4,555 bases of DNA, taken from IMG/VR virus record IMGVR_UViG_2740892270_000009; one strand, 5' to 3'. The notes beneath the pieces were generated by a model. The model ran no database searches and was not told the origin of the DNA. It saw only the letters and a list, made by a program, of their open reading frames with translations. Positions 1-4,555 of the stretch are shown here, piece after piece. Origin of the DNA: a virus. Its lineage: Duplodnaviria > Heunggongvirae > Uroviricota > Caudoviricetes. Within the stretch, counting starts at the first letter, position 1; each line of letters begins with the position of its first letter. The position numbers and the translations under genes are program-made.

Positions 1-1
1 G

Positions 2-88
2 GGACGGAAGTCGCTGTCGTTCTCAAAATCGGTGGAGCTGCATGACAAAGTCATCGGGCATTATCTGAACATAAAACACTATCAATAA
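2..88 (+). CDS. insB: IS1 transposase InsB, C-terminal fragment (5' end outside window)
   Basis: Frame starting at position 2 translates to GRKSLSFSKSVELHDKVIGHYLNIKHYQ followed by TAA at 86..88, which matches the remembered InsB C-terminus. Confidence 0.85.
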   Translation, partial: GRKSLSFSKSVELHDKVIGHYLNIKHYQ

Positions 89-103
89 GTTGGAGTCATT
101 ACC
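81..103. repeat. IS1 terminal inverted repeat (right end, IRR)
   Basis: atcaataagttggagtcattacc is the last 23 bp of the IS1 match. Its reverse complement ggtaatgactccaacttattgat is at 4453..4475. Confidence 0.8.
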
Positions 104-443
104 CGTTAAAACATCTGCAGATAATGACGTTGACTTGGATACAGATGGATTCAGACAACTGAGGATATCGTGCCCATCCCCTTCTGCCAGCGGTGCGATT
201 ATATTGAGAAAAGCTTCTTATGAATTCGGCAAAAGTATAGGTGTATTTGATTTTGCAAACAATGCATCACCAGCGACGATGACATTTTTGATCCCAATAT
301 ATAAAGATGATGATTTTGATTCAGATACTGTTGGTTTTACATTTGCGTTCAAGATGCCAAGAGGCCAGTTTTTTGTAGATGTAAAAGAAAACGGGAATAT
401 CAGAGCTGGAGTTAATGTTAATGGCGAGTCGGGAGTGACCTAC
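104..443 (+). CDS. AT-rich open-frame fragment of unknown function, probably a 5'-truncated gene remnant; not recognisably phage baseplate or IS1
   Basis: Single open frame (frame of position 90) across all 340 visible bases, with no minus-strand ORF of 66 aa or more. By hand count it is about 40% GC against roughly mid-50s% in the phage genes. Translation is Asp-rich (DNDVDLDTDGF, YKDDDFDSDTVGF) and ends ...VNVNGESGVTY. The first in-frame ATG is at 279 with no Shine-Dalgarno, and the frame opens inside IS1, so the start appears to be missing. The 3' end runs into the mask. Confidence 0.3.
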
Positions 444-853
444 NNNNNNNNNNNNNNNNNNNNNNNNNNNNNNNNNNNNNNNNNNNNNNNNNNNNNNNNN
501 NNNNNNNNNNNNNNNNNNNNNNNNNNNNNNNNNNNNNNNNNNNNNNNNNNNNNNNNNNNNNNNNNNNNNNNNNNNNNNNNNNNNNNNNNNNNNNNNNNNN
601 NNNNNNNNNNNNNNNNNNNNNNNNNNNNNNNNNNNNNNNNNNNNNNNNNNNNNNNNNNNNNNNNNNNNNNNNNNNNNNNNNNNNNNNNNNNNNNNAANNN
701 NNNNNNNNNNNNNNNNNNNNNNNNNNNNNNNNNNNNNNNNNNNNNNNNNNNNNNNNNNNNNNNNNNNNNNNNNNNNNNNNNNNNNNNNNNNNNNNNNNNN
801 NNNNNNNNNNNNNNNNNNNNNNNNNNNNNNNNNNNNNNNNNNNNNNNNNNNNN
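444..853. other. Masked interval of N bases (410 positions; only 696..697 'aa' is called)
   Basis: Run of n characters with no interpretable sequence. It hides the junction between the AT-rich fragment and the N-like gene, including that gene's start. Confidence 1.
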
Positions 854-854
854 T

Positions 855-1841
855 GTTGAGAGCGGGGAACTGTCATTTCCGGTCGCCGGAGCTGCAACCG
901 CCAGAAAACTGGAGGAGTCGTCCGTATTCCTGGATGAGTTGATTGAAGACATGTTCGGCGATTTTGATCTCGCGGGAATACCGGACTTTATTCAGAACGA
1001 TGTTATTGCCCGGACGACCGATATGCTGGGAACCGTTCAGACAGCTTTCAAAATGGTTAATTCGGCTGTTTCTGCCGGAGCGAGACTACTGCAGGGCGAT
1101 TTATCCGTCATTCTGATGCCGCCGTCGGTTGCCAGTGATTTTGTGCATACGTTGCAGGATACCTGGCGGGCCGGAACCCGGCTGGTGGATAACACACAGG
1201 ATCTGGTGCAGTCCATAACGACAATGTCCGGCATTACGCTGGACCCAGGACTGGCACCGCGTGCGGTGTGGCCCACAGATTCCGCATCGGTTATCAGGCA
1301 AAAACAGCAGACAAACCTTGTGGCTGCTGTCATCCGGACGACGGCAATCAGCGAAGCCACAAGGGCGGTCACTTCACTGCCACAACCCGGAAGCCTGGTG
1401 AAAAATCAGCAGGCGGTTGTGGCTGTTGGTGGTTCCACTGAACGTCAGTCCGATATTATTCACGTTTCTCATCCGGCACTTGACAGCGTGGCAGCCAGCA
1501 CAGGACAGGATGAGAGAGCGCAACCACCCACGCGGGAAAATCTCACCATCATACGCAAATCGCTGAACGCGGCGATTGAACAGGAGCTCAGGCGTACGGC
1601 GGATGACAGGCTGTTTTTTCAGCTGACGTCATTACGTACAGAACTGAACCGGGATATTCAGGCGCGTCTGGTTCAGACGGAGGAAACCGCAGAGCGAACG
1701 CCAGCGGAAGTTCTGCCTGCGCTTGTTCTGGCTGCGTCATGGTACGACGATGCGTCCCGTGAAACTGATATCCTGGATCGAAATGCCATCTCTCATCCGG
1801 GCTTTGTTCCGGTCAGGGCATTAAGGGTACCCGTCAGATGA
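855..1841 (+). CDS. Phage Mu gpN (gp43)-like DNA circularisation / tail protein, visible C-terminal 328 codons; true start hidden in the 444..853 mask
   Basis: Long open frame with uniform GC-rich codon usage ending at TGA 1839..1841, which overlaps the ATG of the next gene (ATGA). It sits immediately upstream of P/Q/gp46/gp47 homologues, the position of N in Mu-like tail modules. The family call rests on gene order and general character; I did not run a search. Confidence 0.55.
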   Translation, partial: VESGELSFPVAGAATARKLEESSVFLDELIEDMFGDFDLAGIPDFIQNDVIARTTDMLGTVQTAFKMVNSAVSAGARLLQGDLSVILMPPSVASDFVHTLQDTWRAGTRLVDNTQDLVQSITTMSGITLDPGLAPRAVWPTDSASVIRQKQQTNLVAAVIRTTAISEATRAVTSLPQPGSLVKNQQAVVAVGGSTERQSDIIHVSHPALDSVAASTGQDERAQPPTRENLTIIRKSLNAAIEQELRRTADDRLFFQLTSLRTELNRDIQARLVQTEETAERTPAEVLPALVLAASWYDDASRETDILDRNAISHPGFVPVRALRVPVR

Positions 1842-2925: not shown

Positions 2926-3487
2926 TCTGATTTCCCGGGCTGTCATCACGGCGGTGGATTCCGCCAGAAAGTGTCAGTCTGTAGGGTTGAAAATGATAGC
3001 CGGAGATCAGAAACAACACGTTGAGCACCTTGAACCTTATGGTTTTACATCTGCCGCACAGAACGGTGCTGAGGGCGTTGCTTTATTTCCGGCGGGCGAT
3101 CGTTCTCATGGTGTGGTTGTGGTCGTGGCTGACAGACGTTACCGGCTGAAAGGACTGAAACGTGGGGAAGTGGCGCTTTATGACGATCTGGGACAGTCCG
3201 TTGTCCTGACCCGTTCCGGTATTGNNNNNNNNNNNNNNNNNNNNNNNNNNNNNNNNNNNNNNNNNNNNNNNNNNNNNNNNNNNNNNNNNNNNNNNNNNNN
3301 NNNNNNNNNNNNNNNNNNNNNNNNNNNNNNNNNNNNNNNNNNNNNNNNNNNNNNNNNNNNNNNNNNNNNNNNNNNNNNNNNNNNNNNNNNNNNNNNNNNN
3401 NNNNNNNNNNNNNNNNNNNNNNNNNNNNNNNNNNNNNNNNNNNNNNNNNNNNNNNNNNNNNNNNNNNNNNNNNNNNNNNNNNNNNNN
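2903..3487 (+). CDS. Baseplate spike / assembly protein V family (Mu gp45 / P2 gpV-like); stop codon lies within or just after the 3225..3487 mask
   Basis: ATG at 2903 with a strong upstream SD. Translation MNGFSLRNLISRAVITAVDSARKCQSVGLKMIAGDQKQHVEHLEPYGFTSAAQNGAEGVALFPAGDRSHGVVVVVADRRYRLKGLKRGEVALYDDLGQSVVLTRSGI carries the motifs I associate with gpV-type spikes (PYGF, GDRS, a Val run, RRYR, GEVALYDD). The end coordinate is inferred from the expected length of about 190-200 aa and is not observed. Confidence 0.7.
3225..3487. other. Masked interval of N bases (263 positions) covering the spike C-terminus and the gp46 start
   Basis: Run of n characters. Confidence 1.
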
Positions 3488-3488
3488 G

Positions 3489-3866
3489 ACCGGGGCTTCG
3501 ATCGACCTTCTGACGCGTGCTGTGATTATTTCGCTTTTTACATGGCGGCGTGCCGGGCGTGATGATGCACCACGGATATTTGGATGGTGGGGGGATACCT
3601 GGCCTGCGGTTCAGAATGATCGCACGGGGTCGCGTTTGTATCTGTTGCGACGCAGCAAGCTGACAAATAAAACCCCGCAGCTTGCCAGAGATTATGTCCG
3701 TGAGGCGCTGGCGTGGATGGTGGAGGATGGTGTTGCTTCCCGTCTTGATATTAACGCTGTCCGGACCGGGACAGACTCGCTGGCACTTGCCATTACCATT
3801 TACCAGCGTGACGGCAATATTCACAACATTATTTTTGATGATATCTGGAGTGAACTGAATGGCTGA
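3489..3866 (+). CDS. Phage GP46 family baseplate protein (Mu gp46 / P2 gpW-like), visible 125 codons; start hidden in mask
   Basis: Frame 0 translation TGASIDLLTRAVIISLFTWRRAGRDDAPRIFGWWGDTWPAVQNDRTGSRLYLLRRSKLTNKTPQLARDYVREALAWMVEDGVASRLDINAVRTGTDSLALAITIYQRDGNIHNIIFDDIWSELNG resembles the GP46 family (WWGD, GSRLYLL, EDGVA). TGA stop at 3864..3866 overlaps the ATG of the next gene. Confidence 0.7.
   Translation, partial: TGASIDLLTRAVIISLFTWRRAGRDDAPRIFGWWGDTWPAVQNDRTGSRLYLLRRSKLTNKTPQLARDYVREALAWMVEDGVASRLDINAVRTGTDSLALAITIYQRDGNIHNIIFDDIWSELNG
3846..3851 (+). promoter_or_regulatory. Probable ribosome-binding site for the gp47-like gene
   Basis: tggagt (with GGAG at 3847..3850) lies 8 nt upstream of the ATG at 3859. 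Confidence 0.35.
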
Positions 3867-4452
3867 CAGTCAGTTTTATCGCCCCGGCCTCCCGCAACTT
3901 ATTTCTATGATCCGGAGCGATTTATTAACCCGCTTTGAGCAGGATACGCTGCTTCGTCGTATGGATGCGGAAGTGTATGCCCGTGTACAGGCTGCAGCCG
4001 TACACACGTTGTACGGGTATATCGATTATCTTGCCAGAAATCTGTTACCGGACGTGTGTGATGAAGACTGGCTGTACCGGCACGCCAGAATCAAACGCTG
4101 CCCGCGAAAAGAAGCGGTGGCAGCCCGGGGATTTGTGCGCTGGGATGGCGTAGAGGGGACGCCGGTATTGCCAGCGGGAACGCAGATCCAGCGTGATAAT
4201 CAGGTGACCTTTACCACGACGGCGACGGTGACCGCAGCCGATGGTCTTCTCCGGGTGCCTGTTGTGGCAGACGAACCGGGATCGGCGGGGAATACGGATG
4301 ATGGTATTGCCATGCAACTGGGAACACCCGTCAGTGGTCTGCCGTCCACAGGGTACGCTGACACCATTACAGACGGTGAAGATATTGAAAATCTGGAAAT
4401 ATGGCGTGCCCGCGTTATGGAACGTTATTACTACATTCCACAGGGGGGCGCA
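3859..4452 (+). pseudogene. Baseplate J-like protein (Mu gp47 / P2 gpJ family), 3'-truncated by IS1 after codon 198
   Basis: ATG at 3859 overlaps the gp46 stop (ATGGCTGA). Translation MADSQFYRPGLPQLISMIRSDLLTRFEQDTLLRRMDAEVYARVQAAAVHTLYGYIDYLARNLLPDVCDEDWLYRHARI...YYYIPQGGAGND has the character of a baseplate-J N-terminal region. The frame then runs straight into the IS1 terminus at 4453 and stops at 4531..4533 after 26 IS1-encoded codons. Family members are, from memory, roughly 300-400 aa, so the C-terminal part is missing. Confidence 0.7.
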
Positions 4453-4475
4453 GGTAATGACTCCAACTTATTGAT
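4453..4475. repeat. IS1 terminal inverted repeat (right end, IRR) of the second copy
   Basis: ggtaatgactccaacttattgat is the reverse complement of 81..103. Confidence 0.8.
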
Positions 4476-4554
4476 AGTGTTTTATGTTCAGATAATGCCC
4501 GATGACTTTGTCATGCAGCTCCACCGATTTTGAGAACGACAGCGACTTCCGTCC
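4468..4554 (-). CDS. insB: IS1 transposase InsB, C-terminal fragment (5' end outside window)
   Basis: Mirror image of 2..88: the minus strand encodes ...GRKSLSFSKSVELHDKVIGHYLNIKHYQ with its stop as tta at 4468..4470 on the + strand. Confidence 0.85.
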   Translation of the reverse strand, partial: GRKSLSFSKSVELHDKVIGHYLNIKHYQ

Positions 4555-4555
4555 C

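Follow-up and report, generated by a model that had tools for sequence, protein, structure and literature searches.

The stretch of DNA analysed here, referred to below as the window, is the 4,555-nt IMG/VR record IMGVR_UViG_2740892270_000009, assigned to the Caudoviricetes, which begins and ends inside copies of the insertion sequence (IS) IS1. It is very probably a short-read contig of Shigella sonnei whose two ends lie in separately inserted, full-length IS1 copies within a decaying prophage. According to the mechanism that we propose, one copy (copy A) would have jumped into an AT-rich gene downstream of the tape-measure gene and the other (copy B), oppositely oriented, into the gene for baseplate J/gp47, each event producing its own 9-bp target duplication. 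Both insertions would thereby have broken genes of a phiP27-like, defective prophage whose tail genes are of Mu type, presumably within the IS1 expansion and prophage decay already known from Shigella. A short-read assembler would then stall at IS1, which it cannot cross because many near-identical copies are present, and the 4.4-kb unique segment would emerge as a contig of its own. The ends of such a contig are reverse complementary because the two real IS1 copies are inverted relative to each other.

IS1 is the most abundant insertion sequence in Shigella, where it accounts for 42-59% of insertion sites and drives gene loss (Hawkey et al., 2020; PMC7373316). An earlier note, made from the window sequence alone, had recognised an IS1 end at each border and had considered that the pair might invert the segment or behave as a composite-transposon-like unit; a contig broken at repeated IS1 copies was put forward as the more mundane reading. 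It is this last reading that the comparisons with complete genomes and with other contigs support.

Full-length IS1 copies at both ends

The two arms of the window form an inverted repeat of 103 nt with 100% complementarity, as found by repeat search and by string comparison, and a perfect repeat of this length cannot have arisen by chance. Compared with annotated IS1A/IS1B, the 103-nt ends are 100% identical in about 5,000 of 5,426 complete Escherichia coli genomes, and the same query returned a median of 10 and a maximum of 66 IS1 places per E. coli genome. The ends are thus confirmed as exact reverse complements that match the right end of IS1. Within them, the insB stop codon TAA lies at window positions 86-88, and the 23-bp right terminal repeat (IRR) reads GGTAATGACTCCAACTTATTGAT at 4453-4475. 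The 3' ends of insB in both copies point inward, as the earlier note had said, and the gene calls of long assemblies agree, with insA followed by insB on the plus strand at the left and insB followed by insA on the minus strand at the right.

The sequence beyond the window was read from ten S. sonnei loci (L002-L011) on long contigs, of which nine measure 4.8-5.0 Mb and the tenth 681 kb; HE616528.1 (S. sonnei 53G, listed as group II) is among them. In all ten, both window ends continue into a full-length IS1 and represent the final 103 nt of the element, which establishes that the copies are complete beyond both junctions and that they are two separate copies. Both measure 768 bp in eight of the loci, and one 767-bp copy each was found in L004 and L011, two assemblies that by appearance are long-read derived. 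Six loci have no difference between copies A and B, and two loci have a single-base difference; in L002, for example, copy A (5415-6182, 768 bp) and copy B (10595-11362, 768 bp) have the same sequence. The distance between the inverted 768-bp repeats ranges from 4406 to 4418 bp over the ten loci. In the element itself, the left terminal repeat (IRL, GGTGATGCTGCCAACTTACTGAT) matches the IRR at 18 of 23 positions, the A6C motif of the -1 frameshift that joins insA to insB' is present at element position 307, and both frames were seen in a three-frame translation. Pfam searches identified the InsA domains PF03811 and PF12759 and the transposase domain DDE_Tnp_IS1 (PF03400, E=7e-74). The outer ends of the pair are intact IRL sequences on both sides.

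Gene order around the two elements is the same in every one of these loci. Genes for the sheath, the tube, an assembly protein and the tape measure are followed by insA-insB on the plus strand, by the segment and by insB-insA on the minus strand, and after copy B come the C-terminal part of gp47, gp48 and tail fibre genes. The tmRNA gene ssrA and smpB lie downstream in nine loci; in L007 an integrase-bearing block follows the tail fibre genes instead.

Separate target duplications and an uninterrupted relative

In all ten loci, copy A is flanked on both sides by the 9-bp target duplication CGTTAAAAC and copy B on both sides by a different one, GGGGGCGCA. The earlier note had suggested looking for target duplications of 8-9 bp on the outer flanks: each copy does prove to be bordered by a 9-bp duplication, and none is common to both outer flanks.

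The comparison with an uninterrupted prophage, also suggested there, was possible with E. coli FDAARGOS_944 (locus L001), whose prophage region contains neither IS1. In this genome each 9-mer occurs once, CGTTAAAAC at 6001 and GGGGGCGCA at 10402, and the sequence is continuous across both positions. The interior of the window (104-4452) matches this phiP27-like prophage at 98.8% identity over its full length apart from runs of N, and the segment is colinear with it. The per-copy 9-bp duplications and the colinearity with the uninterrupted relative show that the prophage was there first and that IS1 entered it twice, independently and by simple insertion.

Contigs that end in IS1

One reading frame ties the window to a large set of similar contigs. 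The open reading frame (ORF) at 3859-4533 joins 198 codons of gp47 to 26 codons read from IS1 and ends at a stop at 4533, giving a protein of 224 amino acids; no other complete ORF free of N crosses a junction. By exact-sequence look-up the chimeric protein is listed in 226 index blocks, and the longest contig carrying it measured 2-5 kb in 186 of them and exceeded 1 Mb in 20. The protein has an S. sonnei entry (Ss046, Q3YYR0_SHISS) and is recorded on 230 contigs. There it is labelled 'putative head assembly protein', a misleading name, since what the ORF encodes is baseplate J in truncated form. Clustered at 90%, the junction protein groups with 'partial' forms of 212-221 amino acids on contigs of 4500-4553 bp and with a form of 224 amino acids on a 4662-bp contig. 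Other S. sonnei assemblies have yielded the same unique piece in these sibling contigs, with the cut falling at different depths within IS1. Ends that fall inside a multi-copy element, and independent assemblies cut at varied depths in the repeat, are what a collapsed repeat leaves behind, and together with the 2-5 kb carriers they bear out the proposal of a short-read contig broken at IS1. The equal length of 103 nt at each end probably corresponds to an assembler k-mer or graph overlap.

About 920 nt of the window are N, in three runs (444-853, 2062-2313 and 3225-3487) that measure 410, 252 and 263 nt where the true lengths are 492, 247 and 249 nt, respectively. The true segment between the IS1 copies has 4412 nt, compared with 4349 in the window, and coordinates within and across the N runs are accordingly unreliable. 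Two isolated bases (AA at 696-697) interrupt the first run. Outside the runs, every block of the window has the sequence of L002, and the N runs look like scaffold gaps of estimated size rather than simple masking.

Several points weigh against the short-read contig explanation. The exact value of 103 would follow from an assembler overlap of about that size, and the window may be less than a whole contig. Masking applied at a later stage is a possible source of the N runs. Finally, the ten loci are those that were shown individually, and 11 similar places were collapsed in the search.

Other readings of the IS1 pair

Composite transposons built on IS1 are known both with direct arms, as in Tn9, and with inverted arms, as in Tn1681, which carries a heat-stable enterotoxin gene. 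Formally the architecture seen here fits, as two full IS1 copies surround a segment and the outer IRL ends are intact, yet we consider it highly improbable that the two elements and their 4.4-kb cargo moved, or are moving, as one unit of this type. The outer flanks differ, and each outer 9-mer recurs on the inner flank of the adjoining IS1, which is the signature of separate insertions. The cargo is made up of broken phage tail genes and offers no evident selectable function, it is colinear with the prophage on both sides as well as with the uninterrupted FDAARGOS_944 locus, and all ten contexts retrieved represent the same locus next to ssrA. Neither junction was present in the 5,426 complete E. 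coli genomes (a set with no records named Shigella), where the matches were to the uninterrupted prophage or to unrelated IS1 copies. The left junction was not found in 72,556 PLSDB plasmids, which matched IS1 only, and its exact 45-nt sequence had no match in GTDB species-representative contigs. Neither a duplication shared by the outer flanks nor a foreign cargo or second context was thus found; because the outer flanks share no duplication and the cargo is not foreign, the segment did not arrive as a composite. Arrival as a composite transposon was therefore rejected on the basis of the per-copy duplications and of colinearity. Composite transposition by the pair, as in the unit of the earlier note, is structurally possible but unsupported and was not observed.

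The inversion envisaged in the same note is structurally possible. Recombination of the RecA type between inverted repeats is a general principle, and inversions and rearrangements flanked by insertion sequences are frequent in Shigella (PMC8072062); identical inverted 768-bp repeats 4.4 kb apart offer a substrate for RecA-dependent inversion. It is nonetheless very unlikely that the segment inverts by homologous recombination between the IS1 copies and that both orientations exist in S. sonnei populations. In all ten assemblies, which cover at least two lineages (53G being listed as group II), the segment has the ancestral orientation and each IS1 retains its matching duplications. Swapped flanks of the type CGTTAAAAC-IS1-TGCGCCCCC were seen in none of the ten, the 11 collapsed similar places and raw reads lying outside this inspection. 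The inner flanks would have changed places after one inversion or any odd number of them; they are unswapped, and there has thus been no net inversion in the ten assemblies. Moreover, the genes inside are already inactivated, and their orientation would be without evident consequence. If the IS1 pair and the 4.4-kb segment were an active unit in S. sonnei populations, flipping or transposing in the manner of Tn1681, some isolates would carry the segment inverted or at a second site; such activity is hardly to be expected. We give virtually no credence to an assembly artefact, be it a single IS1 on a small circle or a misassembly of chimeric or hairpin type. Circular contigs and graph artefacts do typically have identical ends of equal length, but the ends of the window are inverted rather than direct and hence are no circle overlap, and in ten independent long assemblies there are two distinct IS1 copies, each bordered on its far side by prophage DNA in the chromosome. 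One IS1 copy on a circular contig, which the earlier note had named as an outcome that would overturn its interpretation, was ruled out on these same grounds.

Prophage genes of the segment

Two separate IS1 insertions leave between them a block of phage genes (Table 1). In FDAARGOS_944 the corresponding region is annotated as coding for a hypothetical protein, a DNA circularisation protein, a baseplate assembly protein, baseplate assembly protein V, a GP46 family protein and a baseplate J/gp47 family protein, and Pfam recognises Mu gp43-, gp44-, gp45-, gp46- and gp47-type domains in the segment, Baseplate_J among them. The C-terminal remainder of gp47 (PF26079) is found on the far side of copy B.

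Table 1. Features of the window, with window positions; coordinates preceded by L001 or L002 refer to those loci.
Feature	Position	Strand	Remarks
IS1 copy A, final 103 nt (insB 3' end, IRR 81-103)	1..103	+	other 665 nt leftward in complete genomes
Inner target duplication of copy A (CGTTAAAAC)	104..112		outer copy just past IS1 in complete genomes
phrog_5586 gene, 3' part (~127 of 160 codons), cut by copy A	104..485	+	end approximate, N from 444
DNA circularisation protein gene, Mu gp43-like	532..1841	+	L002 6611-8002, PF07157; start approximate, in N run
Baseplate hub gene, Mu gp44/GpP-like, partly N	1838..2925	+	four GpP/gp44 domains
Baseplate assembly protein V gene, Mu gp45-like	2903..3450	+	PF06890; 3' part in N, end approximate
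Phage GP46 family gene	3456..3866	+	PF07409; 5' part in N run
Baseplate J/gp47 gene, first 198 codons, cut by copy B	3859..4452	+	intact gene: 360 amino acids, L001 9817-10899
Inner target duplication of copy B (GGGGGCGCA)	4444..4452		same 9-mer outside in all ten loci
IS1 copy B, final 103 nt (IRR 4453-4475)	4453..4555	-	window stops inside copy B

The 'AT-rich fragment' of the earlier note does have a low G+C content (about 35-39%), and it does not represent foreign debris but belongs to a prophage gene that lies between the tape-measure and DNA circularisation genes and continues past the left IS1, where its 5' part is found. The intact gene encodes the hypothetical protein WP_000594909.1 (160 amino acids, L001 5900-6382) and belongs to phrog_5586, a family of unknown function (E=1e-88); it had no match in Pfam, NCBIfam or PADLOC. 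Its distribution is patchy, with matches in 11 among the closest E. coli prophages listed and none in phiP27, and because of this patchiness it looks like accessory cargo of the moron type.

The hub gene contains an in-frame GCTGGT repeat at window positions 2391-2402 (L002 8547-8563) whose copy number varies: one copy is present in L005, L007 and the E. coli locus L001, two in the window and L002, and three in the other seven loci. The repeat behaves like a small variable-number tandem repeat marker among near-identical S. sonnei assemblies.

The surroundings carry further traces of mobile elements. In S. sonnei an IS3-family element lies directly upstream of the sheath gene, and in FDAARGOS_944 the sheath gene is itself split, by ISEc60. 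The latter genome has, adjoining its tail fibre genes, an ipaHe effector gene with a frameshift, which suggests that its 'E. coli' background is like that of Shigella or enteroinvasive E. coli. The genes ssrA and smpB border the prophage remnant. All these features fall in the regions L002 1-953 and 16090-17149 and L001 781-1971 and 15275-16410. Beyond the prophage the S. sonnei assemblies differ from one another: compared with L002, the regions L005 19536-20675 and L007 16200-20675 have, past an IS4 element, bamE and an SMC-like gene instead of an S30AE-family gene and pheA, and L007 has a second integrase-bearing block past the tail fibre genes. As it is the outer sequence that differs among assemblies, these rearrangements are placed at other IS copies nearby and not at this IS1 pair.

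Significance and comparison with known systems

The locus is an ordinary one and is already known, since the genomes of Ss046 and 53G, both published, contain it. It adds one more case of IS1 breaking prophage genes in S. sonnei and has little biological weight, and the IS1 pair appears to have no function of its own. Its lessons are practical. Repeat copies in inverted orientation make a short-read contig resemble a transposon with terminal inverted repeats, and target duplications belonging to each copy, together with an uninterrupted relative, tell two insertions made in place from a composite that has moved.

The element does not differ in any respect from IS1 of the IS1A/IS1B type in E. 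coli and Shigella, with which it shares the length of 768 bp, the imperfect 23-bp terminal repeats, insA/insB', the A6C motif and the 9-bp duplications; only its final 103 nt lie inside the window. As in Tn1681, two full inverted IS1 arms bracket a segment. In contrast to Tn9 and Tn1681, there is no duplication shared by the outer flanks, no second site was found, and the cargo runs on into the surrounding DNA and is not selectable.

Among deposited phages, the closest to the segment is the Stx2e phage phiP27, with 96.5% identity over 90% of the segment, from the circularisation gene through gp47; the alignment starts at segment position 425 and leaves the phrog_5586 gene unmatched. Unlike in phiP27, the tail and baseplate module described here is broken by IS elements and survives as a remnant adjoining ssrA. 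Salmonella phages of the ST64B type show about 70% identity to the segment, and the gp43-gp47 genes of Mu are distant relatives. The insertions themselves are of the same kind as those of the IS1 expansion described in Shigella, in which coding sequences are interrupted, sites are common to several assemblies, here including 53G, and the repeats fragment short-read assemblies; the present locus is one instance of that expansion and shows no difference from it (Hawkey et al., 2020; PMC7373316).

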